NCBI GenBank assembly: GCA_000437315.1
Contig: FR899419.1
Location: 16,156 to 80,155 of the forward strand
Direction of reading: 5' to 3'
Length of the DNA: 64,000 nucleotides
Source of the DNA: Mycoplasma sp. CAG:472
GTDB lineage: Bacteria > Bacillota_I > Bacilli_A > RF39 > UBA660
Position numbers and translations under genes: made by a program. Of the stretch, positions 7,491-36,644 are shown piece after piece. Every line of letters begins with the position of its first letter. The stretch's first letter is position 1. Below the pieces are notes generated by a model. The model made no database searches. It was not told the origin of the DNA and saw only the letters and a list, made by a program, of their open reading frames with translations.

Positions 7491-7492
7491 TT

Positions 7493-10618: not shown

Positions 10619-10704
10619 ATTTCATCACAAACATATAATATCACATTTTATTTTATTTTACTACTTTAATTTAAATAGAATTTATGATATAGTAATTAAG
10701 TAAT

Positions 10705-10780
10705 TACCCAGTAGCCAAGCGGTAAGGCATCAGGTTCTGGTCCTGACATTCCATGGGTTCGAATCCTATCTGGGTAACCA
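10705..10780 (+). tRNA. tRNA-Gln (anticodon CUG), CCA encoded
   Basis: Folds by hand as acceptor TACCCAG/CTGGGTA, D-arm GCC-AAGCGGTAA-GGC, anticodon arm TCAGG-TTCTGGT-CCTGA, T-arm ATGGG-TTCGAAT-CCTAT. Near-identical D and T regions to E. coli tRNA-Gln. G at position 37 and a 6-nt variable region are slightly unusual. Confidence 0.8.
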
Positions 10781-10790
10781 AATATATAAT

Positions 10791-10826
10791 AACTTTCCTT
10801 ATTTTAAGGAAAGTTTTATTTTTTTA
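10791..10826 (+). terminator. Rho-independent terminator after tRNA-Gln
   Basis: AACTTTCCTT-ATTTT-AAGGAAAGTT perfect 10-bp hairpin followed by TTATTTTTTT. Confidence 0.65.
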
Positions 10827-10867
10827 CCCCAACTTTTACCACCAAAATAAAAAAAGCGCCGAAGCAC

Positions 10868-13036
10868 TTAAAACCTTGAGGGATTAATAGTAATTTGTAC
10901 ATCAACATCTTTATTTAAAACATATTTTTTATCAATATTTGAAAGGACATCAAAAAGATTATCAATTGTTTTATATTTAATAATAATTCCAAAATGATAT
11001 AAATTATTTATTCTAAACATACCCGCAGGTGTTGGTCCTAAAATAATTTTATTTTTAATTTCTTTGTTTAAATAACCCTTTATTAAATTGGATTCTTTAC
11101 TAGCAATTTCATAACTTTTACTAATTATCATAATATGAGCAATATAGCAAAATGGTGGATAAAAAAGTTTATGGCGAATATCAAGTTCATATTTAAAGAA
11201 GCTTTCATAATCATTATTTTTAACATACTCTAAAACTTTATTATCAGGATTAAATGTTTGAATTAAAACTTCTCCAGGAGCATTTCCTCTTCCTGCTCTT
11301 CCTGATGTTTGATATAAAAGAGAAAATGTTTTTTCATTAGCTCTAAAATCTGGTATATTTAAGGATGTATCAGCATTAATAATACCCACTAAAGTAACAA
11401 GTGAAAAATCAAGGCCTTTACTAATCATTTGCGTACCTAAAAGTATATCATATTTATGTGCAGAAAAATCATCAATAATTCTTTGATAACTACCTTTTTT
11501 TGATGTAGTATCTTGGTCCATTCTAATAATATTTGCCTCTTTGAAAAGAGTTTTTAGTTCTTCCTCAACTTTTTGAGTACCAAGGCCTAAATAATTAAGA
11601 GCATCTTCATTACAGTTTGGACACATTTCATCCTTTTTAATATTATATGAACAATAATGACATCTTAAACTATTACTTGTCTTATGATATGTTAAGGTTA
11701 TATCACAGTTTGGACATTTATATGTATAACCACAATTTGAACAAGTTACAAATGTAGAAAAACCTCTCCTGTTTAAAAGAAGTATTACTTGCTCTTTTTT
11801 TGCTAACCTATCACTAATTTTAGAGATTAATTCTTTTGATAAGAATTTTCCTCCTTCATATTTCATATCAATTAAATATGTTTTAGGAAGCGGTGCATTA
11901 TTTGCTCTTTTGTTAATTGTAACAAGATGATATACATCTTTTAAAGTTCTTGCTTTTGATTCAAGACTAGGAGTTGCACTAGCAAGTACTAAAGGTATCC
12001 CAAGTTCCTTTGCTCTAAAATTTGCTACATCAATTGCATCATATCGTGGAGAGCTATCTTGTTTATAACTATCTGAATGTTCTTCATCAATAATTATTAA
12101 ACCTAAGTTTTTAATTGGTACAAATATACTACTTCGAGTTCCTACAACTATTTTAACTTCTCCTTTATATATTTTCATATATTCATCATACTTTTCGCCA
12201 GTAGAAAGTCCACTATGGAAAATAGCTACAAGTGATCCAAATCTTTTATAAAATCTTTGAACAGTTTGCGTAGTTAAACATATTTCAGGAACAAGTACAA
12301 TAACAGTTTTACCTATTTTTAATACTTCATCAATAAGAGCCATATAAGTTTCAGTTTTACCACATCCAGTAACCCCCTGAAATAAATATACATTATAAGA
12401 ATTTATTCCTTTATTCATTATTTCAAAAGCTTTAGTTTGCTCTTCATTTAATGTAACAGGTATGCTTTTTTCATCACCGATATTAATACGATATTTTTCT
12501 TTTTTAACTTCCTTTACTAAACCTTTTTTAACAAGAGTATTTAAACTACTACCTACTACTTCTTTTTTATTTATAAATTCACTATTTAAAAGTTTATCTA
12601 ATATAATTACTTGATTTTGATATCTTTCATTTTCTAAAATATATTTATTTATAATATTTTTAGCTTTATTTAAAGTAATAAATGTATCATATTTCTTATA
12701 ATCTTTATTATCACTTTTTATTTTAAGTGATGGAGGCATCATTACCTCAATTGCACTTATAAGTGGACACAAAGTAGTTTTTTTTAAATAATAAGCCATT
12801 TTAAGTTGCTCGTCATTTACAATAAAATTATCATTTATAGAAATAATTTCTTTCATTTCATAATCACATTTATTAGAGTTTATCCCAATAACTATTCCAT
12901 TAATAACTCCTTTGTTAAAGGGAACAACTACTTTCATACCAACTTTTAAAGTATCCTTAAATTTATTTGGAATTATATATGAAAATATTTTATCTAATGA
13001 TTTAACTGGATATTCAATTATTACATCTGCCTTCAT
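10868..13036 (-). CDS. priA: Primosomal replication restart helicase PriA
   Basis: Walker A GVTGCGKTE, DEEH box (IIIDEEHSDSYKQ), two Cys4 zinc clusters (CSNCGY..CPNCD, CHYCSY..CPNC). Length 722 aa. UUCG-loop hairpin plus T7 at 10847-10867 after the stop. Confidence 0.95.
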   Translation of the reverse strand: MKADVIIEYPVKSLDKIFSYIIPNKFKDTLKVGMKVVVPFNKGVINGIVIGINSNKCDYEMKEIISINDNFIVNDEQLKMAYYLKKTTLCPLISAIEVMMPPSLKIKSDNKDYKKYDTFITLNKAKNIINKYILENERYQNQVIILDKLLNSEFINKKEVVGSSLNTLVKKGLVKEVKKEKYRINIGDEKSIPVTLNEEQTKAFEIMNKGINSYNVYLFQGVTGCGKTETYMALIDEVLKIGKTVIVLVPEICLTTQTVQRFYKRFGSLVAIFHSGLSTGEKYDEYMKIYKGEVKIVVGTRSSIFVPIKNLGLIIIDEEHSDSYKQDSSPRYDAIDVANFRAKELGIPLVLASATPSLESKARTLKDVYHLVTINKRANNAPLPKTYLIDMKYEGGKFLSKELISKISDRLAKKEQVILLLNRRGFSTFVTCSNCGYTYKCPNCDITLTYHKTSNSLRCHYCSYNIKKDEMCPNCNEDALNYLGLGTQKVEEELKTLFKEANIIRMDQDTTSKKGSYQRIIDDFSAHKYDILLGTQMISKGLDFSLVTLVGIINADTSLNIPDFRANEKTFSLLYQTSGRAGRGNAPGEVLIQTFNPDNKVLEYVKNNDYESFFKYELDIRHKLFYPPFCYIAHIMIISKSYEIASKESNLIKGYLNKEIKNKIILGPTPAGMFRINNLYHFGIIIKYKTIDNLFDVLSNIDKKYVLNKDVDVQITINPSRF

Positions 13037-13523
13037 TTTTCCTCCATATATGAATTAAAAATACTAGTAAAGAAAGCATTATTATACCTATAAAAATATA
13101 TAAATAATTATTAAGTAAAAATGCATAAATAGCGCCAAAATTACTTATAACAAGTACTACTTTACCAAATACTTTACTTTTATCAATTTCTTCACCATCA
13201 TTAAATTTATTACTATCACCTTTAGTTTTATAATAACCAGATTTAATTGAAATAACTCTATGAGTATTGACAAAATTTTCATTTGTTTTAAAGGAGATTA
13301 CATCATTAACTTTATAACTATCCTCTTTTTTAACTATTACTAAATCACCAACATTTATATATGGTAGCATACTTGATCCAGTATTTATAAAACTTGTATA
13401 ACCAAATACATAAGGAATTTTTTTTAAAACTATTTTTTGATATGCAAAAGAAATTGTGATATAAAGAAAAAACATCACAACGATAGTAAGTAATATTAAT
13501 ATTATTTTTCTAAATACTTTCAT
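13014..13523 (-). CDS. Signal peptidase I, ER/archaeal (SipW-like, Ser/His) type
   Basis: N- and C-terminal TM segments, catalytic Ser box NTGSSMLPYINVGDLVIV, His box VNTHRVISI, and TKGDSN box. These match SipW/S26B rather than the Ser/Lys LepB type. Confidence 0.8.
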   Translation of the reverse strand: MKVFRKIILILLTIVVMFFLYITISFAYQKIVLKKIPYVFGYTSFINTGSSMLPYINVGDLVIVKKEDSYKVNDVISFKTNENFVNTHRVISIKSGYYKTKGDSNKFNDGEEIDKSKVFGKVVLVISNFGAIYAFLLNNYLYIFIGIIMLSLLVFLIHIWRKNEGRCNN

Positions 13524-15092: not shown

Positions 15093-15128
15093 ATTTCCTC
15101 CCATAAAAAATAAATTAGAAAAACTAAT

Positions 15129-15314
15129 TTATTTACATTTACCATCACCTGGTTTTTCACCAGCAACGTATTCCTGGCCAATCATTGAGCAGCTTGTTTT
15201 AGTGATAGAGTCTTTTAAATAACCACCAAAATAGTTAACTAAAGCAATTGCAAGTACACTTACAAGAGCAATAATTAAAATATATTCTACTAAAGCTTGT
15301 CCTTTTTTATTCAT
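15129..15314 (-). CDS. Flp/class-III-signal-like small pilin (61 aa), last gene of the F1-like operon
   Basis: MNKKGQALVEYILIIALVSVLAIALV fits the Flp-type G-xxxxEY motif plus a hydrophobic helix. It lies 42 nt downstream of the gamma-like gene. Confidence 0.5.
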   Translation of the reverse strand: MNKKGQALVEYILIIALVSVLAIALVNYFGGYLKDSITKTSCSMIGQEYVAGEKPGDGKCK

Positions 15315-15356
15315 ACATTAACCTCACTATCATTTTATCTTAACTTACATTTTTTG

Positions 15357-16154
15357 TCAATTATCATCATCATCTTCATTATTTGTAAATATTACTTTTT
15401 TAGAGTTTTCAATATTTTTCTTAAGATCTTTTTCACGAATCTTTCTAAGTTCACGAAGTTTTTCTTCCATTTCAAGTTCATCAAGTTTCTTAAGTGCTGA
15501 AGAAGTCATCGCATTTCTAATAACGTTTTCACTTGCCCAAGAAAATATTTCACATATTTCAAGTTCATAACAAACATAATAAACGATTAAATTATTTATA
15601 AAACTTTTAATATCAGTTTCTATTAAAAAATCAACATTTTCTTTTGCACTTTCATCATAAACTACTGGGAAAACTTGCATACTTGTAAATTCACTTTTTG
15701 AAAAGTTATAATAATGATTATAATAAATAACTATTTTACTATAACTTTTTTCATTAATTGCTTTTGTAAGATATTCTTTTAATCTATCAAGTTCTTTATA
15801 AAAATCATCTTTTGCTATTTTCATAACTGTTTTATCATCTTCATAAGCAATTTTTCTACCAATTATAATTTTATAATCGTCTTTAGTTTCTTTAATCTTT
15901 TGAGAAACAACCTGATTATATGAAGAACAAAAACCATAATCTGAAGCAATATAAATATTAAGTACTGGTTTTGAGGCATCAGGTTCTATCGAATTTTTGT
16001 CAAGAACTATATTATCATTATACATAATCGAAGATATTATTTTAGTAAGAACTGAACTTGTCATACCAAATTCTTCGACTTTACTTTTCGCAGAATTTAT
16101 TCTAACTAGAGAAAATAAATTCATAACTTGTACTATAGGTTTAATATTTTTCAT
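15357..16154 (-). CDS. F1 gamma-like subunit (short, 265 aa)
   Basis: NIYIASDYGFCSSYNQVV resembles the AtpG ITSDRGLAGAYNSNV segment. N- and C-terminal helices (C-terminus NVIRNAMTSSALKKLDELEME..LRELRKIREKD) match the gamma coiled-coil pattern. Confidence 0.55.
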   Translation of the reverse strand: MKNIKPIVQVMNLFSLVRINSAKSKVEEFGMTSSVLTKIISSIMYNDNIVLDKNSIEPDASKPVLNIYIASDYGFCSSYNQVVSQKIKETKDDYKIIIGRKIAYEDDKTVMKIAKDDFYKELDRLKEYLTKAINEKSYSKIVIYYNHYYNFSKSEFTSMQVFPVVYDESAKENVDFLIETDIKSFINNLIVYYVCYELEICEIFSWASENVIRNAMTSSALKKLDELEMEEKLRELRKIREKDLKKNIENSKKVIFTNNEDDDDN

Positions 16155-16161
16155 ATTACAC

Positions 16162-16476
16162 CTACATTATTGTATTAATTCTAGTTTTATAAAACTCATC
16201 TAAATATTTAAAATAATCCGCTATAGCTTCTCCATCTTTAATCTTTCTTGCTTCATCTTTAATATCTTTACTATCAATTAACATTTGGGTAATATCATTA
16301 ATCATTTTCTTACTATCAATTGATATAAGTCCATTTCCGGAAACTTGAAATATCTTTTTTTCATCACTATTAACACTTACGGCATAAGCACATTTAATTG
16401 CTTTATAATTAATAAGTTTTAATACTACATATTCTTCGCCAGTTTCATCACAAAGTGTTTTTCCTACTAAATCCAT
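16162..16476 (-). CDS. Hypothetical soluble protein (104 aa) within the F1-like operon
   Basis: ORF abuts both neighbours (gaps of 1 and 7 nt). No motif recognised. Confidence 0.45.
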   Translation of the reverse strand: MDLVGKTLCDETGEEYVVLKLINYKAIKCAYAVSVNSDEKKIFQVSGNGLISIDSKKMINDITQMLIDSKDIKDEARKIKDGEAIADYFKYLDEFYKTRINTIM

Positions 16477-16477
16477 T

Positions 16478-17203
16478 TTAATCCTCCTTTAATATAGAAA
16501 GAGTATCTATATTTCTATTAAGTAAACTTACATTTTTATTTTTAACTGAGGCATCGTTAATTAAATCAATTATATAATCATTTAAATAAAGTGATGCACC
16601 AGTTATTTTAGTATCTTCATAATAAAATCTACTATTTGCATAATCATAATACATAATATAATTACTATTTACATAAATAAAGCTAAATCTTGAAAGATTT
16701 ATTTCTTTGCCATTATATTTTAAAATGCAAGGTTCAAAAACTACATAAGTATCTTCATTATCATATAAAAAGAAATTATTTTTTAGAGCTTCTTTTTTAT
16801 TATACTTTAACTTAAATAATGATTTATTATCTTCGATAACTGTATACTTTGGTAAACTATAACTCTCATTATTTTTATTATAAAAATAGATTATCATTTT
16901 TTTAGGTAAAATTATTTTAGAAAGTGCTTCAGAATAAATAATTGAATCTTCATCAATTTCATTTCCAGCATTTTTTATATCTATAATACTATCATCCTCA
17001 TATGTAATATGTGCTTCATAAGTATTTTTCTTTAATGCATCATATTGATATACTTTTTCATAAGTACTTTTAAGTTCTACTTTATTAGAGTTATTTATAA
17101 TTCTAACAATAATAATTGTACTTATGATAACTAGTATAAGTCCTAAAATTATAGATACGACAATATAATTTTTCTTAAAAAAATTAATTATTTTCTTTTT
17201 CAT
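16478..17203 (-). CDS. Single-pass membrane-anchored protein (241 aa) within the F1-like operon
   Basis: N-terminal TM segment YIVVSIILGLILVIISTIIIV followed by a beta-rich Asn/Tyr-rich ectodomain. Overlaps the upstream gene by 20 nt. Confidence 0.5.
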   Translation of the reverse strand: MKKKIINFFKKNYIVVSIILGLILVIISTIIIVRIINNSNKVELKSTYEKVYQYDALKKNTYEAHITYEDDSIIDIKNAGNEIDEDSIIYSEALSKIILPKKMIIYFYNKNNESYSLPKYTVIEDNKSLFKLKYNKKEALKNNFFLYDNEDTYVVFEPCILKYNGKEINLSRFSFIYVNSNYIMYYDYANSRFYYEDTKITGASLYLNDYIIDLINDASVKNKNVSLLNRNIDTLSILKED

Positions 17204-17689
17204 TTTTTACCTTCCTAATATCTCTTATAAATTTTAAATGTGTAAACATATAAAAGAATAAGCCAAATAAATTTATTGCTACTTGTAAAAAGAAATAAAT
17301 GTAATTTTCAGTATTTGCAAGTTTTATTTCATTAATTAAATTGGCAAGGTAAATTGTTGAAACATTGACACCATTTATAAGTAAATTTATAAAAAGTGCT
17401 TTCCATTTTAATACTAAAATAAAACTAAGTAATATTAAAATTTCACTAACTACGGCAAAAGAAACGCTAAAATCTAATTTAAAAATAAGAAAATATGTTA
17501 GAAATAAGTAATTAATAATAATTAAACTTAAAGCAAATATTTCATTATTTTTTAGATTTAAAAACATTCCATATAGATTATAATTATTTTTACCTTGCTT
17601 TTTTATAATGAAATAAAGAGCAAAAATAAGAACAAGGAAAAGGGAAAAAACAATTACTAAAAATAAATATTTTTGAATAAATTCTACCA

Positions 17690-17690
<1 letters not shown>
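17184..17690 (-). CDS. Polytopic membrane protein (168 aa, ~5 TM), possible degenerate a-subunit analogue
   Basis: Five hydrophobic segments. The last helix, QVAINLFGLFFYMF, is reminiscent of the a-subunit LRLFGN motif but has Asn where the essential Arg would be. This is a weak similarity. Confidence 0.45.
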
Positions 17691-20605
<2,915 letters not shown>

Positions 20606-20608
20606 AAG

Positions 20609-21348
20609 TCACACATCCCTTTCATTTATGCTATAATCATAAATTCTATCCTGATATTTAATTATAATTCCTTTATATATATCATCACTATAGGAAGTTT
20701 TTACATATGGATTAATATGATTATAATTCTTATTTTTATCACCAGTTATAACTTCAATAACTGGATTTGTTTTTTCTATATTAAGTTCAAAATCTAATAA
20801 AAATCTATTTAACTTAAACTTATGATGTTTTAAATAATCATAAAATACTTTATATTCATCTTCATTAAGCATTTTAGATATTTCATTTATTTGATTATCT
20901 TTATTAAGCATTTTAAGTTTATATATTAGATTTGGACTAAATCTATCGTAAATACTTTGATAATATTTATAATTTTCATCTACTGTATTATTCTTAACAA
21001 AATCAGATATTATTTTATCTTCATCAATCTTAAAAATTGCATCAACTTTATTAGCAATTTTTAAGGCATTACCATTTTCATAATCAGCATTATTATAAAT
21101 ATCAAGAAGTGATTTATCGATACCCTCTTTTACTTCTACCTTCTTTTTATCCTCTTCATAAAATTCATTATTAATTTTTTCTTCATTTGTTTCTTTGTTT
21201 TTTTCCTCTATTTTCTTATCAAGAGCTTGCATAGTCTTAAAGTAATATTTTTGACTATCTTTATTTAAGCTCTCAATAAGTTTTTTTAGAGAAAAGAACA
21301 TTATAACTGAAAGTAATCCAGTTAATATTAAAAGTAATACTATTTCCA

Positions 21349-21349
<1 letters not shown>
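20609..21349 (-). CDS. N-terminally anchored coiled-coil protein (246 aa), possible b/delta-like stator
   Basis: N-terminal TM segment IVLLLILTGLLSVIMFF, then a charged helical stretch (KKIEEKNKETNEEKINNEFYEEDKKKVEVKE), then a ~120-aa globular C-terminus. The position between c-like and alpha-like genes mirrors atpF/atpH. Confidence 0.4.
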
Positions 21350-22940
<1,591 letters not shown>

Positions 22941-22942
22941 TC

Positions 22943-25900
22943 TTACCCTCTTTTCTTATCTTCAGTTCTTGTTGTAGCATTATTTTCACTACCAAGAATA
23001 TAACATTCATTTTTATCAGCATTCCATTTATTTGAGGCAGCGTTTGCAATACATTTTTCCTCAGTATTTAAATCTTTAGTAATAGCTCCTCCTAAATAGA
23101 ATTTATATACTATGTTATAACCAGCACTTCTTAAAAGTAGTTCATCAGTATAAGCGTATGCATTAGCATTTTGACCTTTTGTTCCATTATGTCTAAGTAA
23201 TATTTGATAATAACTATCTCCGACTACGGAACTTTCTGTTGAACCAGTTATATAAATAATCTTATCATCTTCATCAGTACTTAACTCATCAAACATCTTT
23301 GTTCCAGAAATATAAATATTTCCTACTGAACTTTCAATTGAGTTAATTGCATAAGTTATACCTACTACATAAGCCTCTTGCTCTACATAATCTTCATCAG
23401 GTTCTAATGGTACATTATCTTTCATTATATTAGCCGCATAACCAAATCTTAATGTAGTTTCACCATAAATATTTTGATCTTCACCAACATAGTTATCAGC
23501 TATATATTGGACAAGTCCTGTATTAATATGATAATTATTTAATGTAAACATTAAGTATCTATCAAAATGATGTTCTAGAGCAGTTGTTCCATTATTATTA
23601 ATATAAGTATCATACTCTATAATGAAATAATATTGTTTATTTTCATCGAGGTTATTATATCTTGTTTTATTATTTGAACTAAAGATATTTTTAACTTCTT
23701 CAGAGCCACTTACAACCTTATATTCACCATTTTGAAGTATTGCAAGATATGCTTTATAATTACCACTTGTAACAACTTTATCAGGGTCATTAAAGGCAAT
23801 TTTGAAATTTAAATAATAACCACTTGTTGTATTATAATGACTTGCTTTAATAACATCTAGGTTTGGAGCATTAAGACTTCGAACGCTTACACCACTGTTA
23901 TAGATAACTATTTCTTTTTCTCCTGAAGGAGTATCCACTTTAGCAGTCAATTTAGTTTGATAATCTTTACCAAATATAAAACTATCACCAGTTATATCAA
24001 AAGATGCTGACATATCATATTTATTTGATTTAGCGCATGTACTGCCACCTAAAACATTGTAATTATCATCACTACAGTTTTGAATATTTGTAGCACATAC
24101 ACCATCTGCACAAATTTCATAATCTACTGATTTAATACCCATAATATCTGAAATATTATAATTTAAATTTAATAATCTTTGTGAATAATCATCTTTAGAA
24201 TTAATATCAAATGAAGCATCAGTTACTTTTACATCAGCCTCGCTTAAAGTTTTAAATGTATAATTAAATGTTTCATAAAGAGTACTAGATGAATCTGTTA
24301 AATATACTTTCTTACCAGATATCATCATATAGGCTTTTATGTTATATTCAGTATTAATATCAAGACCATATAATGTAATTTCATAAGTAATATCAATCTT
24401 TTTACCAGAATACTCTTCATCATTAAACTTAATAGTTTTTGTTAAATAATCATATTTATAATCAGTTACTACTTTATTATCCACTTTTACACTTTTTAGA
24501 TTTAATAAGTAATTTGAATATGTTTTAATTACATAACTATTACCATTTACTACTCCACTTTGAGAAGTAAGTTCATCTTTATTAATCTTTAATGTATTAT
24601 TTCCTACTTCTAAATAAAGGTATTTAACATTATCTTCATTATCAATATCACTTTCTTTAATACCAGATATTTGCATATTAATTTTAGCTCCATTTATAGT
24701 CGGAGATACTAAATTAATTTTAAGTGATGGTACAACATTTTCATAAGTAAATGTATTATCTAAACTACTTATTTCTGATGTACCAAGTTCTTTTATATCA
24801 ATAGCTTCATAATCTTTATTTAAATATATTGTAACACCTTTTTCATTTACTTTATAATCTACTTTTCTTTCATAGAATATTTCATTTTTATTAGCAAAAT
24901 ATCTTGATGCAAGGTTTTTAAAGTAAATATTTCCTATAAAATAATTATTATTTGCATAAGTATTAGAGCCTGCTCCCGGTTCATCATCATCAACAAAGTA
25001 TCCTCCTGAGGTAAATGGATAATATGCTCCAATTGCATTTTGTGATAAAGTAAAGTTTCTATCAAATAGTAAAACATATTCACCAGTTTCACTTTTTACA
25101 AAAGCATATTTTTTACTAGTATTTCCTAAAAATCCTACTTTGCCTGTATCATATAAACCTTCAAGGGTAACAGTTATATTTTTATTTTTATAACTTTCAA
25201 AAACTGATCCAAAAGTGTTAGAGTAATATAATTTAGAATAATCTAAATATAAACATAAGTCTTCTTCACATGTTCCAATATATGCAGTATGAAGTAAATC
25301 ATTATTTTTATCATATCCTGTATAATTCCATGTTTTTGTTTCACTACCTTTAGTATAAGTTATCTTATTACCTCCGATAGCATCTAAGAATCCTTCAGTT
25401 TTATTATTATTTATATTTTCTATTTTAAATGTAGAACTTCCATCTGATAAAATCAAATTATATGAAGCAACTTTTGATGTTTGACCAGTAAGTTTCATAA
25501 TAAGTAAATTATTATGCATTAACTTATTTTCAGTTTTAAGTATATTATAACTCATTTCAAGAGGACTAATACCATTAAATACTTTTTCATTTACTAAAGC
25601 ATAACTACTTTCATAAGTATCACTTTCAATAAGTTTTACATTAACATGTATTTTATAATTATCAGCATTATTTAAATTATTAATCTTTGCACATTTATAA
25701 GCTGAAGCATTATATGCTCTTAATGGTTTAGGACAAGTAACACTTTCACTAGGATTAATTACTTCATCCTCATTTACAGAATAATATAAATTAAAATCAT
25801 TATTATTAATTGCTTTATCTTTATCAATTATCTCATATTTATATGTAATAAAGTTTTCTGCAGATTCCCAAGCAAACATATAAACTGTTGGTACTTCCTT

Positions 25901-28867
25901 TAAAACATTAATATTTTCTGAGGTAACTGGTTCATTTTTACTTAAATCATCTTTATTAAATGGAAATAATAATTCATCACTTTCTGGAGTAAATTTTAAT
26001 GATAAAGTATACTCTACTACATAAATATGTCCACGTTTTAAAAATTCATAATCAGAAAAATACAAAGTTTTTTCAGGTAAATTATCTGAGGCAGTAAGTT
26101 CAAGTTCATCAGTTATTTTTAATGTATTTGCTTCATCTTTACCATTTGTTATATCATATATTTTATAATTAATCTTTTTAATATATTTTTTAATTGAATT
26201 ATTATTAGTTACTTCTTCTTCATTTTCAGATGTAGTATCCTTTAAGATTGGTGTTATTTTAAGACCAATAGTTGTATCATCCTTTAAGTTTTCATCTTTA
26301 CCAGCATTAGGTATTTGAGTAACCTCTATCGTTGCTTCTCCAGAGGCAAGTACTAAAAGTGAATCATTAATTCTAAATTCAAGGTATCCTGGATCAAATA
26401 CTACTGAATCATTTCCACTTATTCCATTTTTAATAAATATTACATAATTTTTAGATATTATACCATTTTTATGTCTTTCACGAAGCATATCAAGTGTATA
26501 ACCAAAATCCGCTAAAGTAAGTTTCTTTGTTCCATCAAAGTAATCAGCTATAATATTTTCTGTAACATTTATCGAAGATATATGTGAATTATTATATAAA
26601 GTTCCTTCACAAAGTTCTATTTCAAAACTTTTAAAGTTTTCTTTAATAACATCTGCGGTTATACTTTCATCAATTAATTTACTTATTTCAAGATTAACAT
26701 TAACATTAAATATATCCTTAAATGCTTCTTCATCAGTTAATGTAATACTTTCCATATTTGTTTTAACTACATTTGCCTCAGTTGTAAATATCAATGTTCT
26801 ATCTACAAAATTAACTCCTGCAGGTTTTTCTTCATCCTTTAAATCATAATATGCATATAAATCTAATGTGTATTTTGTAGAACTTTTTAGCATTGATAGA
26901 TTAATACTTGCACATTTTGTTGTTTCACTTTCAGATGAAGAACAATCAGTATAAGTAAGAGCAGTAGTATTAACATCTCCACTACTCATATTTTTATATT
27001 CTACATAAATATTTTTAGTTTTATCAATTGTATTATCTGGATCATATATAGTAAACTCTCCAGTTACAGTTGATGCACTTACATAAATATTTTTAGCACT
27101 AATTGTTGGTGTCTGAAGGTTATTCATATTAAATAAAGGACTATTTTCTGTACGATAATCAATATTTTTTTCATTATCATTAATACTTATTATAGCATTT
27201 ACATAATAATTTTTATTTTTTTCTAAAGGCTTTTCAAATTTTAATACTTCCTCAAGGGGTTTATCTTTAGTAATAGTTTTTACTAAATTATCTCCTTCAT
27301 CATAAATATTATATATTACTTTTTTAATTGAATTATTTGGATCTACTACATTTTCTAATTTAATACTTACTGTATAATCTTTTTTATTAACTGTTGCTAT
27401 TACACTAGGCATTATTTGAGTATCTTTAAATGGATTAATTTTTAATGTACTTGATGTTACACTTGCGGCATTACCATCAGGATAAGATATACTTCCATAA
27501 GTAATATCTTCGATTTTAGCAATATATTTTTTATTAGGGTTTAAATTATTAAATGTATGATTTATTTTTTGACCATTATTTTCAAATCTAACGCTTTCTA
27601 CTAAATTACTTTTTTCATCATATAAATTAAGTGTTCCTGACGTAAATGTAGATGTTTTACTTACATTAATGTTATAAGATAAACTATTACTACTTTTATA
27701 ATCAAGTTCAAGAAGTGCTCCAATTTCTGAAGTATTAAATGTTCTTTGGAATAATACATAATCACTTACTACTCCAGTATTACCTTTATATGAAGCATAA
27801 ATTGTTAATATATATTTACTATTACTTTTAAGTCCATCATAAATATATTCATTTATTTTTCCATAAGTTTTATATTCTTTTAAATCAATTACATCACCAG
27901 TTTTAACATTTAATAGTTTTGCATATACTGAAGATGTTATTAAATTATTATCATCAATTACATCAAAATTAATATCTATTTTATGAGAATTTACATTACT
28001 TGATAATAGTCTTACATAAGGAGCTTTTTTATAATCAACAACTGTTTCTACTTGATATCTATCCTCTACTTTAATATTTGGTTTATTAGGTTTAACTGTA
28101 GTATTTCCTGTATTATCATCATCTTTTTTATCATCATATAAAATATCAATATTTTGATCACTATTAATTACTATTTCAGATAAGTTTAATTTAGTTTCAT
28201 TTCCTACACTAATTATTCTTTTATCTAAATCAACTTTTACATTATCAGATGTTAATATGAAGCATTCTGATGCAATAGTTTCAATATTTAATGTTTCATT
28301 TGTTATTCTAACAAGTCCACCATCAATAAATTCAAATTCAAAATAATAGTTTTCATACATATTTTCAGAACTTGTTAATTTAAGTTTTAAGTTTTTACCT
28401 GCTACTATATATTTTGTATCACTAATTCTTCCAATAAAACTACTAAAAGTAATATCTTTATTTTTAGAACTAATTAAATATCTATCATCTTTATAATTAA
28501 TTAAATATTTACTTTTAATATTGTAATAAGAAAGATATTTTTCATTTAAATCATCAAGTGGCATAAGTACACCATCATTTAAAAAACTTATTGATTTATC
28601 ATTATAAAATGCAAATGAATAAATACTTGCAACAGTTTTCTTATCATCTTTTGAAGTAAATATTACATCATCACTATATCCTTTTTTATATTCAGTTCCC
28701 TTTATAAAATAGGCTTTCTCTGGTACATCACTATCGGTTATACTTACATAACCATCACTATAAAATACTGTTTTTTCTTTCAAAACAAATTTATAAAGTG
28801 AAAATACTAAAGCTGCAAAAGTTACTATACTTACTAAAATTATCGTTACAAGGCTTTTATTTTTCAT
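22943..28867 (-). CDS. Giant membrane-anchored surface protein (1974 aa) with many FN3/Ig-like repeats; first gene of the F1-like operon
   Basis: N-terminal TM segment LVTIILVSIVTFAALVFSLY. Recurrent about 90-110-aa modules end in L(K/N)xNxxY.....Y strands (LKSNSKYILTIYASY, LNPNKKYIAKIEDI, LKSSTKYTLDLYAYY, LDENKQYYFIIEYD). Its stop lies 2 nt from the next start. Confidence 0.7.
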   Translation of the reverse strand: MKNKSLVTIILVSIVTFAALVFSLYKFVLKEKTVFYSDGYVSITDSDVPEKAYFIKGTEYKKGYSDDVIFTSKDDKKTVASIYSFAFYNDKSISFLNDGVLMPLDDLNEKYLSYYNIKSKYLINYKDDRYLISSKNKDITFSSFIGRISDTKYIVAGKNLKLKLTSSENMYENYYFEFEFIDGGLVRITNETLNIETIASECFILTSDNVKVDLDKRIISVGNETKLNLSEIVINSDQNIDILYDDKKDDDNTGNTTVKPNKPNIKVEDRYQVETVVDYKKAPYVRLLSSNVNSHKIDINFDVIDDNNLITSSVYAKLLNVKTGDVIDLKEYKTYGKINEYIYDGLKSNSKYILTIYASYKGNTGVVSDYVLFQRTFNTSEIGALLELDYKSSNSLSYNINVSKTSTFTSGTLNLYDEKSNLVESVRFENNGQKINHTFNNLNPNKKYIAKIEDITYGSISYPDGNAASVTSSTLKINPFKDTQIMPSVIATVNKKDYTVSIKLENVVDPNNSIKKVIYNIYDEGDNLVKTITKDKPLEEVLKFEKPLEKNKNYYVNAIISINDNEKNIDYRTENSPLFNMNNLQTPTISAKNIYVSASTVTGEFTIYDPDNTIDKTKNIYVEYKNMSSGDVNTTALTYTDCSSSESETTKCASINLSMLKSSTKYTLDLYAYYDLKDEEKPAGVNFVDRTLIFTTEANVVKTNMESITLTDEEAFKDIFNVNVNLEISKLIDESITADVIKENFKSFEIELCEGTLYNNSHISSINVTENIIADYFDGTKKLTLADFGYTLDMLRERHKNGIISKNYVIFIKNGISGNDSVVFDPGYLEFRINDSLLVLASGEATIEVTQIPNAGKDENLKDDTTIGLKITPILKDTTSENEEEVTNNNSIKKYIKKINYKIYDITNGKDEANTLKITDELELTASDNLPEKTLYFSDYEFLKRGHIYVVEYTLSLKFTPESDELLFPFNKDDLSKNEPVTSENINVLKEVPTVYMFAWESAENFITYKYEIIDKDKAINNNDFNLYYSVNEDEVINPSESVTCPKPLRAYNASAYKCAKINNLNNADNYKIHVNVKLIESDTYESSYALVNEKVFNGISPLEMSYNILKTENKLMHNNLLIMKLTGQTSKVASYNLILSDGSSTFKIENINNNKTEGFLDAIGGNKITYTKGSETKTWNYTGYDKNNDLLHTAYIGTCEEDLCLYLDYSKLYYSNTFGSVFESYKNKNITVTLEGLYDTGKVGFLGNTSKKYAFVKSETGEYVLLFDRNFTLSQNAIGAYYPFTSGGYFVDDDEPGAGSNTYANNNYFIGNIYFKNLASRYFANKNEIFYERKVDYKVNEKGVTIYLNKDYEAIDIKELGTSEISSLDNTFTYENVVPSLKINLVSPTINGAKINMQISGIKESDIDNEDNVKYLYLEVGNNTLKINKDELTSQSGVVNGNSYVIKTYSNYLLNLKSVKVDNKVVTDYKYDYLTKTIKFNDEEYSGKKIDITYEITLYGLDINTEYNIKAYMMISGKKVYLTDSSSTLYETFNYTFKTLSEADVKVTDASFDINSKDDYSQRLLNLNYNISDIMGIKSVDYEICADGVCATNIQNCSDDNYNVLGGSTCAKSNKYDMSASFDITGDSFIFGKDYQTKLTAKVDTPSGEKEIVIYNSGVSVRSLNAPNLDVIKASHYNTTSGYYLNFKIAFNDPDKVVTSGNYKAYLAILQNGEYKVVSGSEEVKNIFSSNNKTRYNNLDENKQYYFIIEYDTYINNNGTTALEHHFDRYLMFTLNNYHINTGLVQYIADNYVGEDQNIYGETTLRFGYAANIMKDNVPLEPDEDYVEQEAYVVGITYAINSIESSVGNIYISGTKMFDELSTDEDDKIIYITGSTESSVVGDSYYQILLRHNGTKGQNANAYAYTDELLLRSAGYNIVYKFYLGGAITKDLNTEEKCIANAASNKWNADKNECYILGSENNATTRTEDKKRG

Positions 28868-28897: not shown

Positions 28898-28926
28898 ATT
28901 TTATCAAAACTATGTTACTTATTCAA
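28898..28926 (-). promoter_or_regulatory. Candidate sigma-A promoter of the 12-gene F1-like operon
   Basis: Minus strand TTGAAT (28926-28921), 17-nt spacer, TAAAAT (28903-28898), about 30 nt upstream of the ATG at 28867. Confidence 0.45.
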
Positions 28927-28954
28927 GTAATTGATTATATTTTTTTATAAAAAA

Positions 28955-28980
28955 ATCGGCTTCACATAGCGAAGCACGAT
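28955..28980 (-). terminator. Conserved hairpin after DGR target 1 (copy 1 of 2); here followed by a T-run
   Basis: Minus strand ATCGTGCTTCGCTATGTGAAGCCGAT followed by TTTTTTTAT. A near-identical 26-nt copy lies at 32523-32548. Confidence 0.6.
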
Positions 28981-28983
28981 TTA

Positions 28984-30108
28984 TTATCCAAGCATTATTT
29001 TATATGGATTACCCTCAGAACCATCTCCTGAAACAACATATACATTAGATTTAAGATATAAGACTGGCCTAACTGCATAACCGTAATACGCATAGTTGTT
29101 GTAGAGACCGCCGGTGCCAGAGACGTAAACAGGGAGAGAAGAACTGTAGGCCGTCATTGTCCATTCATATCCCTTTGTAAATAACCAATTATTTTTATAA
29201 CCATTATTCACTGCATAACCATAATCACTTGCATACATTAAACCTATCTTTAAAGTAGTACTAGTTTGGCTTGTTTTTTCTTTATCATATTGCGTTTTTC
29301 CCGTGGTTGATGTTGAACCAGAAACGCCAATATTCCAATATACACCATCATATATCATATTATAATAGTCTCCACTTAAGGCTATACCATTTTGCGTATA
29401 ATCACATTTAGCAACCGGTTTTTGTGAACTACTATAATATGAATAACAATAAGCTGCACAGTCACTATTATTTCTACTATTAATTTTTAAAAAGCATTCA
29501 TTTAAATTCTTTTGAATTGTACTTCCTACCCAAGTTGAACTAGATGTAGTATCTGCATTATAGACTAGGCCTCCAATTGAATCATTTCTTATTATTTTAA
29601 CAAGTCCATTATTATTCCAAGTTTTACACGTACCGTCAGTATTTACTGCTGTACATACTGGTGTTTTACCAATTATTCTATAAAGCTCTTTATTATGCCA
29701 AATATAATTATTAGGATTATTTCCTTTATATCTAACTCCGTAATCAGATTTATATAAAAGTCCATTTCCACTTACTTCTCCAGAAGTACTTGTTGTATTA
29801 ACTACATTAGAAAGAAGTTTAGGATTACTTGTAAATGATACATTACAAGAAACATTTCCAGTTATATTTTTAATATCTAATTTCCAATTATCTATATCCC
29901 ATACTCCATCAGCATTATCACAAGTTATATCTACTTGATATAAACCTTTACTAGGAAATGTATTAGATACTTTACCATTTACAAGTAATGCAATTGTATT
30001 TCCATTATAGTTAAATGTATTTTTAGGTTTATTACCAATTATTAATAAAGTACATATCATTATAACAATTAATGATACACATATAACAATCTTTTTATTA
30101 TTTTTCAT
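28984..30108 (-). CDS. DGR target protein 1: membrane-anchored surface protein with a C-terminal variable region
   Basis: N-terminal TM segment. Shares the central module RYKGNNPNNYIW..LYRIIG and the C-terminal WTMTAYSS..[VR]..GYAVRPVLYL..SGDGSEGNPY with the 572-aa paralogue. VR1 lies at 29071-29151. Confidence 0.8.
   Translation of the reverse strand: MKNNKKIVICVSLIVIMICTLLIIGNKPKNTFNYNGNTIALLVNGKVSNTFPSKGLYQVDITCDNADGVWDIDNWKLDIKNITGNVSCNVSFTSNPKLLSNVVNTTSTSGEVSGNGLLYKSDYGVRYKGNNPNNYIWHNKELYRIIGKTPVCTAVNTDGTCKTWNNNGLVKIIRNDSIGGLVYNADTTSSSTWVGSTIQKNLNECFLKINSRNNSDCAAYCYSYYSSSQKPVAKCDYTQNGIALSGDYYNMIYDGVYWNIGVSGSTSTTGKTQYDKEKTSQTSTTLKIGLMYASDYGYAVNNGYKNNWLFTKGYEWTMTAYSSSLPVYVSGTGGLYNNYAYYGYAVRPVLYLKSNVYVVSGDGSEGNPYKIMLG
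29071..29151 (-). repeat. DGR variable repeat VR1
   Basis: Aligns base-for-base with the TR at 30527-30607. All 15 mismatches fall on plus-strand T (coding-strand A) of the TR. Encodes SSLPVYVSGTGGLYNNYAYYGYAV. Confidence 0.9.
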
Positions 30109-30367
30109 TTAATAACCTTCTTTCTAATATATTAATTAAATTTATTTTAAAATAATAATTTAAATAATTATTATTTTCATATTCTTTTTTTACAATAATA
30201 TCTAAATTATCTAATATTATATAATTAATTTCATACTTATTTAAATTTCTATTTATATAATTAAATATTATCTTATCTTCATCAAAAGTATAATATTTAT
30301 TATTTTTAATTATTAATATTAAATAATTTTGATAAATATGTTTTAAAACATTATATCTTTCTTTCAT
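30098..30367 (-). CDS. Small ORF (89 aa), possible truncated MutS-domain-I-like (MSL-like) paralogue
   Basis: NNKYYTFDEDKIIFNYINRNL...INYIILD loosely parallels RGKFYQCKNTDAYIMNLLFGY...ISYQIIE of the 147-aa MSL-like protein. Overlaps the target 1 start by 11 nt. Confidence 0.35.
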   Translation of the reverse strand: MKERYNVLKHIYQNYLILIIKNNKYYTFDEDKIIFNYINRNLNKYEINYIILDNLDIIVKKEYENNNYLNYYFKINLINILERRLLNEK

Positions 30368-30379
30368 ATTATTTTATTA

Positions 30380-30418
30380 GATGTCGATAGAAAGAGTACG
30401 TATACTCTTTCGTCCATC
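30380..30418 (-). promoter_or_regulatory. Long imperfect hairpin in the spacer 3' of the TR
   Basis: GATG..GAT.GAAAGAGTA-CGTA-TACTCTTTC.GTC.CATC: about 17 paired positions with a 4-nt loop. It is relatively GC-rich for this genome. Confidence 0.5.
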
Positions 30419-30526
30419 TATTATCTTTTAAAAGTATAATACTTTTAAGGAAAGTTTATGTTTCTTATGCTTAACACTTTATAGCCATAACCATAAAACC
30501 TAAACCAAACATAAGAAGCTATAAAA

Positions 30527-30607
30527 AACTGCATAACCGTTATACGCATTGTTGTTGTTGAGACCGCCGTTGTTATTGACGTTAACAGGGTTAGAAGAAC
30601 TGTTTTT
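30527..30607 (-). repeat. DGR template repeat (TR)
   Basis: Non-coding. Starts 23 nt downstream of the RT stop. The coding-sense reading is AAC/AAT-rich (N SSS N PV N V NNN GGL NNNN AY N GYAV). Matches VR1 and VR2 except at adenines. Confidence 0.9.
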
Positions 30608-30630
30608 CAAAAAACTTCCCTATATTTATA

Positions 30631-31692
30631 TTAATAGTACCTATCTATAATATGATTTATTTTATCCTTATTTACAAAATTATAACTATGAAAATAATTT
30701 TCTAAAGAATAAAAATATTTTTCAAAAGTAATCATATTATTTTGATACATATAAATACCTTTCTTAATACCTTTTTTTATATTATTTCTTGCATTTTCAC
30801 TGAAATTAATAATAGTTTTATTATTAATAATTCTAAAATTATAACCTAGAAAATTAAAACCATTTTTTAAATTTACAATATAAGTTTTCTTTTCATTTAT
30901 TTCTAAATTATAAGAATGAATAAAATCTATTATTTTATTTTTACATATTTTTAAATAGTTTAAATCATTTGAAAATATTACATAATCATCCATATATGAA
31001 AGCATATATTTTAAATGCAAATCATGAATTATATAGTGATGTAATTTATATAAATAAAATATAGCAAAAAACTGTTGAACTTGGCCTCCCAAAGAAAGTC
31101 CTACACCATTTTTATATCTAGGTAATTTTTCATTAACTTCTTTTTCTAATATATCTATTTTATCATTAATATAATCATAATTAGTACTATCAATTATTTT
31201 ACAAACTAAATTATATTCTTCATTAGTTAAAACATTTATTATTAAAGATTTTAAAATATTATGATCAATAGAATAAAAATATTTTTTTATATCAATTTTT
31301 AAAACATAAATATCTTTATTAAAATGTTTTAACTTTTCAATATCAGAAAGTAATAATTTAATAGCATATGTAAGTCCCATACCTTTCCTTGTTGCAGTAA
31401 TTTCCTTACATAGATATTTTGATAGTTTAGGAATCAAAATATATTTTGCTACATAATGATTAATAATTTTATTAATAATACTTTCACTCATAACAACCCT
31501 AATTTTAGGTTCTCTAACTAAAAATATATTATAACTACTACCTTGATATAAACCATTTTCTAAAATATATTTTATATAAACTAAATACTCTATTTTACAT
31601 TTTTCAAATGCAAGAATTTTCTTTCTATTTTTCACTCCTTTCAATATCTCATTATTATATATATCTAATAAATCACTTATTTTTACTATCAT
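30631..31692 (-). CDS. DGR reverse transcriptase (353 aa)
   Basis: RT motifs: LKIDIKKYFYSIDHNIL, TRKGMGLTYA, GLSLGGQVQQFFAIFYL, YMDDYVIFS (YxDD), LGYNF. Small size, no maturase or endonuclease domains, flanked by Avd and the TR. Confidence 0.9.
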   Translation of the reverse strand: MIVKISDLLDIYNNEILKGVKNRKKILAFEKCKIEYLVYIKYILENGLYQGSSYNIFLVREPKIRVVMSESIINKIINHYVAKYILIPKLSKYLCKEITATRKGMGLTYAIKLLLSDIEKLKHFNKDIYVLKIDIKKYFYSIDHNILKSLIINVLTNEEYNLVCKIIDSTNYDYINDKIDILEKEVNEKLPRYKNGVGLSLGGQVQQFFAIFYLYKLHHYIIHDLHLKYMLSYMDDYVIFSNDLNYLKICKNKIIDFIHSYNLEINEKKTYIVNLKNGFNFLGYNFRIINNKTIINFSENARNNIKKGIKKGIYMYQNNMITFEKYFYSLENYFHSYNFVNKDKINHIIDRYY

Positions 31693-32062
31693 AATCTATC
31701 TTATTATCTAACCATTTATTACTCATTCTATTTATTTCAGATAACTTATATGAAATCTTTTTCAATGAAGTTTCTGCAATATAACCTTTAATAAATAATC
31801 TTTCTATAATGTAATCAATAGTATTTATAAGTGAATTTATTTCTACTTTATATGCACTTATCAATTTATAATTATCTTCATTATTAGTTTTATTTATAGA
31901 ATATAATAATTCTATAGATAATTCCTTTAACTTATTTTTATAAAAATAATCTTTTTTAGGAATATTTTCTATTATCTTATCGAGTATATTCATAAAATCT
32001 TTATACTTAGTTAATATTAAAAATTCTTTAGATGATGCATTATTTTCTAAGTTCATTTTCAA
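31673..32062 (-). CDS. avd: Avd-like accessory variability determinant (four-helix-bundle protein, 129 aa)
   Basis: Size, all-helical character and position immediately upstream of the RT (20-nt overlap). Pattern IENIPKKDYFYKNKLKELSIELLYSI ... IDYIIERLFIKGYI is typical of Avd / 23S-IVS four-helix-bundle proteins. Confidence 0.7.
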   Translation of the reverse strand: MKMNLENNASSKEFLILTKYKDFMNILDKIIENIPKKDYFYKNKLKELSIELLYSINKTNNEDNYKLISAYKVEINSLINTIDYIIERLFIKGYIAETSLKKISYKLSEINRMSNKWLDNKIDYDSKNK

Positions 32063-32483
32063 TTAAACCTATTATTTGTTCAAGTTTTTCATCACAGCAT
32101 CTATTTAAATTGTCAATTAAATAATCTAATCTTTTTCTTTTATCTAAATTTTTTAATGCTAAATCTAAATATTTTGGATAATTATTAAGTTTATCAAAAT
32201 CCTTAATAATAGGATTTTTATCTACCTCAATAATTTGATAAGATATTTTAGCATCTTCCAAAGTATTTAATACTTTGGATAAACTATTATCAGGAAATCC
32301 GCATAAACCATCTTTGAGTACTTTATAACCAAATAGTAAATTCATTATATAAGCATCAGTATTTTTGCACTGATAAAATTTACCACGATTTTTATAAAAT
32401 ATCAAAAATGACTTTACATTAGTAACCCCCCCCCCCGATTTTACATTGTCTTTACATACGTTTACGTTTTTAAATAATTTCAT
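32040..32483 (-). CDS. MutS-domain-I-like small protein (MSL-type DGR accessory, 147 aa)
   Basis: RGKFYQCKNTDAYIMNLLFGYKV..GLCGFPDNSLSKVLNTLEDAKISYQIIE parallels MutS mismatch-binding domain I (GDFYELF..DA......L......aGvP......yl..L...G..vai.EQ). Overlaps avd by 23 nt. Contains a G11 tract at 32426-32436. Confidence 0.6.
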   Translation of the reverse strand: MKLFKNVNVCKDNVKSGGGVTNVKSFLIFYKNRGKFYQCKNTDAYIMNLLFGYKVLKDGLCGFPDNSLSKVLNTLEDAKISYQIIEVDKNPIIKDFDKLNNYPKYLDLALKNLDKRKRLDYLIDNLNRCCDEKLEQIIGLIENELRK

Positions 32484-32522
32484 TTTAACCTTCCTTTCAA
32501 ATTATTTAATCATTTATTTTAA

Positions 32523-32548
32523 ATCGGCTTCACAATGCGAAGCACGAT
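32523..32548 (-). promoter_or_regulatory. Conserved hairpin after DGR target 2 (copy 2 of 2), no T-run
   Basis: Minus strand ATCGTGCTTCGCATTGTGAAGCCGAT. Differs from the 28955-28980 copy only in two loop bases. Lies between the target 2 stop and the msl-like start. Confidence 0.55.
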
Positions 32549-32555
32549 TTATCGA

Positions 32556-35815: not shown

Positions 35816-35856
35816 TTTTAACCTCCCATTTCTTTTAGAATTTAGATAATTTTTAT

Positions 35857-36630: not shown

Positions 36631-36644
36631 CAAAAGTTAATATA

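Follow-up and report, generated by a model that had tools for sequence, protein, structure and literature searches.

The present account concerns a 64,000-nucleotide stretch of contig FR899419.1 from Mycoplasma sp. CAG:472 (the window), and in particular a block of twelve genes, g1 to g12, in which subunits of an F-type ATPase are encoded together with membrane-anchored surface proteins. The DNA of the window is 25% G+C, its frames are open under code 11 and its genes lie nearly all on the minus strand. The block consists of twelve minus-strand open reading frames (ORFs) spanning 28867 to 15129, each either overlapping the next by 1-20 nt or separated from it by no more than 42 nt. This packed, same-strand arrangement had been described in an initial annotation of the window, and its coordinates were exactly reproduced. 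The genes are as follows, with TM denoting transmembrane:

22943..28867, minus strand: g1, 1974 residues, one N-terminal TM helix (6-24), the remainder predicted extracellular
21609..22940, minus strand: g2, 443 residues, paralogue of the g1 N-terminus, TM helix 10-28, weak FN3-like C-terminal modules
21349..21594, minus strand: g3, F-type c hairpin, 81 residues, PF00137 at 30.8 bits (cut-off 24)
20609..21349, minus strand: g4, fusion of b and delta, from an AlphaFold2 model, Foldseek and hhalign
19283..20605, minus strand: g5, alpha-like, 440 residues, PF00006 E 1e-70
17937..19283, minus strand: g6, catalytic beta-like, 448 residues, PF00006 E 3e-63
17690..17953, minus strand: g7, epsilon-like, 87 residues, hhalign probability 86%, E 6e-7
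17184..17690, minus strand: g8, 168 residues, about five TM helices, conserved in every family locus
16478..17203, minus strand: g9, 241 residues, single-pass (TM 14-32) with an all-beta ectodomain
16162..16476, minus strand: g10, 104 residues, soluble, in the window's close relatives only (orthologues in L085, L086 and L087)
15357..16154, minus strand: g11, gamma-like, 265 residues, PF00231 at 81.3 bits (cut-off 39.9)
15129..15314, minus strand: g12, Flp-like prepilin-type peptide, 61 residues, a hydrophobic stretch and two Cys near the C-terminus

Gaps separate g1 from g2 (2 nt), g2 from g3 (14 nt), g4 from g5 (3 nt), g9 from g10 (1 nt), g10 from g11 (7 nt) and g11 from g12 (42 nt), while overlaps join g3 to g4 (1 nt), g5 to g6 (1 nt), g6 to g7 (17 nt), g7 to g8 (1 nt) and g8 to g9 (20 nt). 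The block very probably encodes a non-chemiosmotic ATPase derived from the F-type enzyme.

The catalytic and torque motifs of alpha and beta, judged intact in the initial annotation, are present and invariant across the family of related loci (referred to here by L numbers). Alpha carries the P-loop GDKKTGKT and the Arg finger SVSRLGG, and beta carries its own P-loop, the GERSREG motif, the Walker B Asp and the DEMSEED loop; the catalytic residues remain unchanged over a divergence of 53-93% identity. Because these motifs are invariant, ATP binding and hydrolysis are possible. The N-terminal helix of alpha, which delta normally grips, is kept in the family, and approximately 60 C-terminal residues of alpha are missing in all of its members. 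The gamma-like protein scores well above the Pfam cut-off and just 53 against 194 on the gamma equivalog model TIGR01146. The epsilon-like protein was detected by profile-profile comparison only, its residues 3-87 aligning to positions 1-87 of the 138-residue canonical epsilon profile; it comprises the N-terminal beta-sandwich and is devoid of the C-terminal regulatory (inhibitory) helices, and is thus not a two-domain epsilon. Judged from its sequences, the machine is thus able to hydrolyse ATP and ought still to turn gamma, but no ion path is recognisable in it.

The c subunit encoded by g3 maintains the glycine-rich first TM helix and a cytoplasmic GRNPETK loop, and has Ala in place of the ion-binding carboxylate of the second TM helix (TM2). 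When g3 and 11 orthologues were aligned with 10 canonical c proteins from ordinary atp operons of related metagenome-assembled genomes (MAGs), this site was found to be Ala, Ser or Asn in all 12 family proteins and Glu in all 10 canonical ones, and none of the 12 has an acidic residue elsewhere in TM2. A search of 1.8 billion representative proteins returned about 30 further c clusters with the RNPET loop, likewise without the carboxylate. The cytoplasmic R-N/Q-P-E loop is common to the family and to canonical c, and the outer-face tail F/Y-N-P-L/F of g3 is conserved. Even so, c is under the tightest constraint of all genes in the block, with a ratio of nonsynonymous to synonymous substitution rates (dN/dS) of 0.02 and an identical protein at a dS of about 0.9 relative to L087. 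The c-like subunit recognised at the outset is borne out by a Pfam score above the cut-off, although its missing carboxylate had gone unnoticed by eye. This loss is the strongest argument against a housekeeping role, in which the block would be a divergent F1Fo with its a subunit encoded elsewhere or hidden in g8 as an unrecognisable a, with unconventional ion binding, and with the surface genes as mere neighbours. The near-complete subunit set (c, b-delta, alpha, gamma, beta, epsilon), the canonical ancestral gene order and the public annotation of beta as an F0F1 ATP synthase subunit are in keeping with such a role, but a TM2 free of acidic residues in every family c is not.

The stalk is represented by g4. 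Its AlphaFold2 model (predicted local distance difference test, pLDDT, 76.5) contains a TM and stalk helix at residues 2-57 and a delta/OSCP-like helical bundle with a small beta domain at 79-241, joined by a disordered linker (57-77) whose length varies among relatives. In a Foldseek comparison of this model with the PDB, the top 40 or so matches were all delta/OSCP chains, with a probability of up to 0.98; by hhalign, the delta C-terminal motif aligns and the match to b is weak. The initial annotation had recommended running Foldseek on AlphaFold models and had also reported no recognisable delta/OSCP. For g4, the recommended search led to delta/OSCP, and the report of its absence has to be withdrawn, as the delta domain is fused to the b-like part of the same chain.

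The a subunit is another matter. No protein of the block matches the Pfam model ATP-synt_A, and g8 does not resemble a, in agreement with the earlier statement that a normal a subunit is lacking. The TM segments of g8 bear no conserved Arg, a residue that is essential in the membrane part of subunit a, and profile-profile comparison gave it a probability of at most 1.3% as a hidden a, AtpI or b (below 1% for the a-subunit profile); both results tell against the housekeeping explanation. A search of PDB profiles with g8 yielded no match. A match to DUF1600 (E 0.02) was treated as chance because just one of the 18 g8 members shows it.

A scan of species-representative genomes placed the family at thirteen loci, with a beta identity of 52-67%, the next matches being ordinary AtpD at 44% or less. 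The family loci are mostly 25-29% G+C, with two at 50-58%, and NCBI labels the close relatives as “Bacilli bacterium” or “Mycoplasma sp.” MAGs. In public records beta is named “F0F1 ATP synthase subunit beta” or “F-type H+-transporting ATPase subunit beta”, and the b-delta fusion “hypothetical protein”. All 100 bootstrap replicates of a neighbour-joining tree built from 82 beta sequences recover the family as monophyletic. Identity of its members to canonical beta is 39-50%, while canonical betas, drawn from many phyla, share 58-99.7% among themselves. In that part of the phylogenetic comparison proposed in the initial annotation which this tree covers, beta of the family against canonical beta, the family forms a separate clade and does not fall inside the canonical one. 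On the NCBIfam equivalog models for atpD (TIGR01039, cut-off 462.85 bits) and atpA (TIGR00962, cut-off 484.45 bits), g6 and g5 fall below the cut-offs at 401.7 and 380.4 bits, against 820-835 and 768-820 bits for canonical controls; on TIGR01039 the relatives L084 and L008 reach 455 and 470, and on PRK13343 g5 scores 414 against a cut-off of 554. Ordinary atpBEFHAGDC operons occur in related reduced-genome Bacilli MAGs (L028, L047), Ca. Enterosoma being one example of such relatives. Given alpha and beta that lie far outside the canonical cluster and below its cut-offs, an epsilon without its regulatory domain, g1 and g2 genes whose synteny extends over deep branches of the family and ordinary operons in related MAGs, a divergent housekeeping F1Fo is very unlikely.

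The same losses could be taken for decay. A functionless remnant of an ATP synthase operon would be expected to look degenerate, as do the missing a subunit and c carboxylate and the truncated alpha and epsilon, and in L010 alpha and beta are each split in two ORFs (7782-9114 and 9986-11354), through frameshifts or assembly errors. However, the ORFs of the block are all intact, the catalytic residues are invariant, and dN/dS relative to the orthologous block in L087 is 0.02-0.43 over all twelve genes, indicating purifying selection; the fastest-evolving genes in this comparison are g1, g2, g9, g4 and g8. Further, the exact beta sequence is present on 197 contigs, hundreds of assemblies contain the family and hundreds of related clusters exist; metagenomes of the vertebrate gut commonly have it. 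A decaying remnant is scarcely credible under these circumstances.

The full twelve-gene block is found in L087, L085 and L086 (beta identity 89, 81 and 74%), giving four genomes with three sets of neighbours: TruB/SpoVIF, Ddl or a diversity-generating retroelement (DGR) on the 5' side, and prs or IreB/RuvX on the 3' side. The order giant, g2, c, b-delta, alpha, (gamma), beta, epsilon, g8, g9 is shared by L001, L006-L008, L010 and L011; in L006, a c gene (13-216) lies upstream of the giant gene rather than after g2. Of the 13 loci whose flank is long enough, 9 carry the giant and g2 genes immediately upstream of the ATPase genes, the deepest branches included. Conserved synteny of the surface genes, put forward earlier as a check, is accordingly found at these loci. 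A subclade of L002, L005, L021 and L084 possesses the ATPase core and g8 without g1, g2 and g9, and has instead a single-pass protein of 254 residues upstream and a coiled-coil protein of 280 residues downstream.

The order c-b/delta-alpha-gamma-beta-epsilon of L006-L011 is the canonical atpE-F(H)-A-G-D-C minus atpB. Since this canonical-like order is that of the deep branches, the sequences point to direct descent of the block from an atp operon and not to an origin in the mycoplasma clusters, whose order is different (PMC3369863, PMC12994834). The unusual gene order remarked on in the initial annotation is real in the window, but the last place of gamma is a recent rearrangement: gamma stands at the end of the block in the window's branch and between alpha and beta in deeper relatives. 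The judgement that this is not a normal ATP synthase is upheld by a block without a, with an odd order and with extra membrane proteins.

The surface proteins are less easily classified. The giant g1 evolves fast, and its N-terminal module (144-319) is homologous to g2, the two proteins sharing a membrane-proximal module at an hhalign probability of 92%. No Pfam match to g1 was obtained even at E<=10, nor any PDB sequence match at E<=1, and internal FN3-like repeats are merely hinted at (hhalign probability 46% and below). Homologues of g1, of 1590-1990 residues, lie 5' of the ATPase genes in L001, L006-L008, L010, L011 and L085-L087. The initial description of g1 and g2 as membrane-anchored and FN3-like holds for the anchors, but the FN3 assignment is weak (fn3 E 0.04; PDB profiles E 0.003-1). 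The single-pass g9 is conserved in lineages that also carry g1 and g2. Its AlphaFold2 model, built on a shallow alignment of close homologues only, is of moderate quality (pLDDT 68.6); the best Foldseek match was at E 0.16 with a probability of 0.21, and a search of PDB profiles gave nothing meaningful.

Genes for secreted or anchored proteins flank the cluster in every lineage, whether g1 and g2, the Flp-like peptide or arrays of proteins with TasA/SipW-like signals, and the block might on this account encode a export or assembly ATPase like FliI-FliJ of type III secretion, energising the secretion, insertion or polymerisation of these products, with the c-ring and g8 as part of a membrane gate. 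F1 and type III secretion system ATPases are homologous, and beta scores about 200 bits on the FliI/SctN models. Nevertheless, heteromeric alpha and beta, a delta-bearing stalk and a c-ring are traits of a rotary stator-rotor machine and not of a homohexameric export ATPase, the signal-anchor helices of g1, g2 and g9 are ordinary and compatible with Sec/YidC, and no export-gate homologues were detected among the block and window proteins scanned. An export function is distinctly unlikely.

Comparison with known ATPases defines more closely what the block has kept and lost. It shares with canonical F1Fo (atpBEFHAGDC) alpha and beta subunits complete in their motifs for nucleotide binding and torque, gamma, the beta-sandwich of epsilon, the c loop and the b and delta modules. 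It differs in the absence of a, of the c carboxylate, of the epsilon C-terminal helices and of some 60 alpha C-terminal residues, in the fusion of b with delta and in the addition of g8, g9 and the giant surface proteins. A fusion of this kind is known from mycobacteria, where AtpFH likewise holds a b helix and delta/OSCP in one chain, and 7nkd_d and 7y5b_d are among the Foldseek matches of g4. The mycobacterial enzyme, however, retains a, b' and a c-ring that binds ions, and it functions as a genuine ATP synthase, whereas the block fusion is much shorter and probably independent of AtpFH. The N-ATPases (atpDCQRBEFAG) also represent a divergent second F-type operon of rearranged order, but they retain a and an ion-binding c and have AtpQ and AtpR; scores on the N-ATPase models TIGR03305 (cut-off 752) and TIGR03324 (cut-off 750.5) are far below, at 357.2 and 341.3 bits.

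The closest functional analogues are the Type 2 and Type 3 F1-like ATPases of mycoplasmas. This analogy, drawn in the initial annotation, stands as far as function is concerned, but membership of either family does not, the scores being below the cut-offs. The earlier statement that both types are described in mycoplasmas only agrees with the literature read (PMC3369863, PMC12994834); full-text searches revealed neither F1-like ATPases of such a kind outside mycoplasmas nor the block family itself. The Type 3 “F1-like X0” ATPase (the MSC_0618/0619 family) is required for the MIB-MIP system, which is encoded just upstream of it (PMC12994834, PMC3369863). Its cluster comprises a 12-TM protein, a small cytoplasmic protein, gamma, epsilon, a protein with a signal peptide and two TM helices, alpha and beta (PMC12994834). 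As in the block, F1-like alpha, beta, gamma and epsilon are found there without a, with uncharacterised membrane proteins and 3' of genes for anchored surface proteins; the hosts are genome-reduced relatives of Bacilli, and the surface proteins are the presumed target of ATP hydrolysis (PMC12994834, PMC3369863). Type 3 clusters have neither c nor b/delta (PMC12994834), whereas the block keeps c and b-delta and has no 12-TM protein. Their order is gamma-epsilon-X-alpha-beta and their alpha has no N-terminal helix (PMC12994834), in contrast to the alpha of the block, which keeps its N-terminus. With regard to MIB-MIP, Pfam scans of the block's surface proteins gave no match for g1 and only a weak fn3 match for g2. 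On the Type 3 models NF045934 (cut-off 570) and NF045936 (cut-off 520), g6 and g5 score 379.7 and 290.8 bits. Ordinary AtpD reaches 455-461 on the beta model against 380-417 for the family, and ordinary AtpA 331 on the alpha model. Special kinship with Type 3 was rejected, since ordinary AtpD matches its beta model better than the family does.

The Type 2 “G1-ATPase” of Mycoplasma mobile is similarly an F1-like ATPase with a functional tie to very large surface proteins, whose mechanical work is performed on the outside of the cell (PMC12994834, PMC11864180). G1 beta is a protein of 784 residues with an N-terminal extension of about 300 (match 350-752), against the 448 residues of the block beta. 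G1-ATPase forms dimers in chains, and no c subunit has been described for it. Scores on the Type 2 models NF045858 (cut-off 850) and NF045863 (cut-off 600) are far below, at 326 and 380 bits, and in the PDB search G1 beta matched at 268 bits against 340 bits for an ordinary F1 beta.

Taken together, these features are best accommodated by an ATP-hydrolysing motor that descends from F1Fo, has given up ion translocation and directs its output to surface proteins, a reading to which we assign a probability of roughly 0.5. ATP hydrolysis in alpha3beta3 would turn gamma-epsilon and a carboxylate-free c-ring against a stator of b-delta, probably with g8, and the work would be passed across the membrane to the N-terminally anchored g9, g2 and giant g1. 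Since no ion would be moved, delivery would have to be mechanical. The outcome may be the movement or conformational cycling of a surface structure, serving adhesion and release, motility or surface remodelling. Such a scheme parallels the proposals for Type 2 (gliding) and Type 3 (MIB-MIP), with what would be an independent origin, directly from an atpEF(H)AGDC operon. Functional precedents exist in that Type 3 is needed for MIB-MIP and Type 2 powers the giant gliding proteins (PMC12994834, PMC11864180). That the ATPase drives its co-encoded surface proteins mechanically is suggested by this analogy, tentatively and at somewhat less than even odds; a mechanical engine is plausible from gene linkage and analogy together.

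Several points weigh against this interpretation. Operon linkage and analogy are the whole of the grounds for coupling the ATPase to g1, g2 and g9, and the subclade that has no g1, g2 and g9 implies that the giants are not obligatory partners. The stalk helix of b-delta is short and followed by a disordered linker, which makes a poor rigid stator, and neither g8 nor the g9 ectodomain yielded a functional clue. An a subunit may be encoded elsewhere in the genome, outside the block in which it was looked for, and the host may possess a canonical ATP synthase as well.

A more specific form of the motor may be envisaged, in which the c-ring is a free-spinning transmembrane rotor that carries a surface protein, the helix of g9 (and/or of g2 or g1) lying in or on the ring. 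V-ATPase c-rings contain single-pass proteins. The helix would be docked by the outer-face F/Y-N-P-L/F tail of c, and the giant protein would be rotated or cranked. This form is unlikely, but if true it would constitute a third kind of bacterial surface rotary machine, driven by ATP and not by ions, and a living intermediate between an ATP synthase and a mechanical motor.

The limits of the twelve-gene unit are indicated by the following elements, in which RBS denotes a ribosome-binding site:

28959..28975, minus strand: terminator-like hairpin GCTTCGC-TAT-GTGAAGC with a T-run, ending the upstream DGR target gene
28898..28926, minus strand: promoter-like site TTGAAT-17-(TG)ATAAAAT, followed by the RBS AAAGGG and the g1 ATG
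15332..15360, minus strand: near-consensus promoter-like site TTGACA-17-TAAAAT (11/12), overlapping the gamma stop and followed by the RBS GAGG and the g12 ATG
15108..15134, minus strand: AT-rich 11-bp hairpin with a U-run, directly 3' of the g12 stop

The first of these hairpins is taken as the 5' limit of the unit, and it has a copy of 94% identity behind the second DGR target (32521-32552). The g1 site matches the consensus at only 9 of 12 positions, with TG preceding the -10 element, and DNA as AT-rich as this (25% G+C) shows no enrichment of promoter-like hexamers (172 against 150 +/- 13 in shuffles), so the site is credible by its position alone and not by its match. The promoter TTGAAT-17-TAAAAT proposed in the initial annotation exists as a site (28926-28898). 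The hairpin after the g12 stop (-7.3 kcal/mol, z = -3.4) is likely a weak terminator and the 3' boundary of the unit, with the start of prs 24 nt past the g12 stop. Neither this hairpin nor the promoter-like site in front of g12 had been mentioned in the initial annotation. Signals at both ends of the unit are plausible.

The last gene, g12, has the processing motif KG/QALVEYILIIALVSV followed by a hydrophobic helix, consistent with the G/xxxxEY pattern, and scores 25.8 bits on Flp_Fap (PF04964), below the gathering score of 32.2. Its orthologues in L085, L086 and L087 have precomputed Flp_Fap matches, some of them marked weak. The protein is 85-90% identical in L085-L087 and 66% in L004, with a dN/dS of 0.08. 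A universal component of the cluster it is not, as it adjoins the cluster only in the window, L004, L085, L086 and L087. Linkage of a pilin to the operon, as first described, is thus restricted to close relatives, and a single promoter for the whole does not hold, g12 having a strong promoter-like site of its own; g12 would be an accessory of the window's genus, linked to the block and transcribed from its own promoter. No tad/cpa assembly genes (prepilin peptidase, TadA, TadB/C) were found among the window ORFs scanned with Pfam, nor did the window show genes for pilus assembly. A protein of 186 residues at 4128-4688, unrelated to g12, carries the N-terminal methylation motif of type IV pilins (PF07963).

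In the window (1-64000), the real-looking ORFs of at least 100 residues are all on the minus strand and GC skew is negative throughout; on the plus strand nothing was found apart from a tRNA (10705-10777). The DGR lies immediately upstream of the twelve-gene block, on the minus strand at 28984-34274, and contains:

30631-31692, minus strand: reverse transcriptase
31673-32062, minus strand: bAvd-like gene
about 30527-30602, minus strand: template repeat
29071-29146 (in a 374-residue ORF) and 32640-32715 (in a 572-residue ORF), minus strand: variable repeats at the 3' ends of two paralogous targets

Mismatches between the repeats fall on template adenines of the coding strand, and both targets end in near-identical terminator hairpins (28953-28984 and 32521-32552). 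The DGR is absent from the position upstream of the block in L087, L085 and L086. A few kb upstream of the DGR are mobile-type genes interleaved with trigger factor, GreA and the dnaK operon; these encode a Bro-N protein, an AbiEi-like regulator, a tyrosine recombinase (XerC/D or integrase type) and a PD-(D/E)XK transposase-like protein (35216-38809 and 49252-50235).

Tandem arrays of one to five paralogues of about 200-260 residues lie 3' of the ATPase cluster in six related genomes (L001 14874-15569; L002 7487-9905; L005 13713-17548; L021 13751-15985; L084 13834-14484; L086 14005-18114). The highly conserved N-terminus of these proteins, for example MEENRKGPGVFYAVIGVATLVVAIIGATFAYFSA, recalls SipW-dependent or TasA-type signal peptides. 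Distant relatives of the array proteins occur in the window at 43190-44278 and in the N-terminal part of the DGR target at 32556-34274, and a small signal peptidase of S24/S26-like type, with TM helices at its termini, is encoded at 13014-13523. At 5426-9421 are an RnfD-like protein (286 residues) and an RnfC-like protein (381 residues; Nuo51 FMN domain, 4Fe-4S), with other rnf genes absent. Beside this pair is a protein of 642 residues that strongly matches the eukaryote-type ALK/LTK glycine-rich domain (PF12810, E 7e-41).

The family is distinctive in that a c-ring and a b-delta stalk have been kept and ion coupling lost, in walled, code-11 gut Bacilli. If the motor reading is correct, the diversion of F1-like ATPases to surface work would no longer be a peculiarity of mycoplasmas. 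The retained c-ring and b-delta stalk would offer a natural experiment, a rotary F-type machine without ion coupling, and could make tractable the force-transmission step of mycoplasma motors, which is poorly understood. Moreover, because databases label these proteins as ATP synthase, metabolic reconstructions may wrongly credit these genome-reduced gut Bacilli with a proton-coupled ATP synthase.

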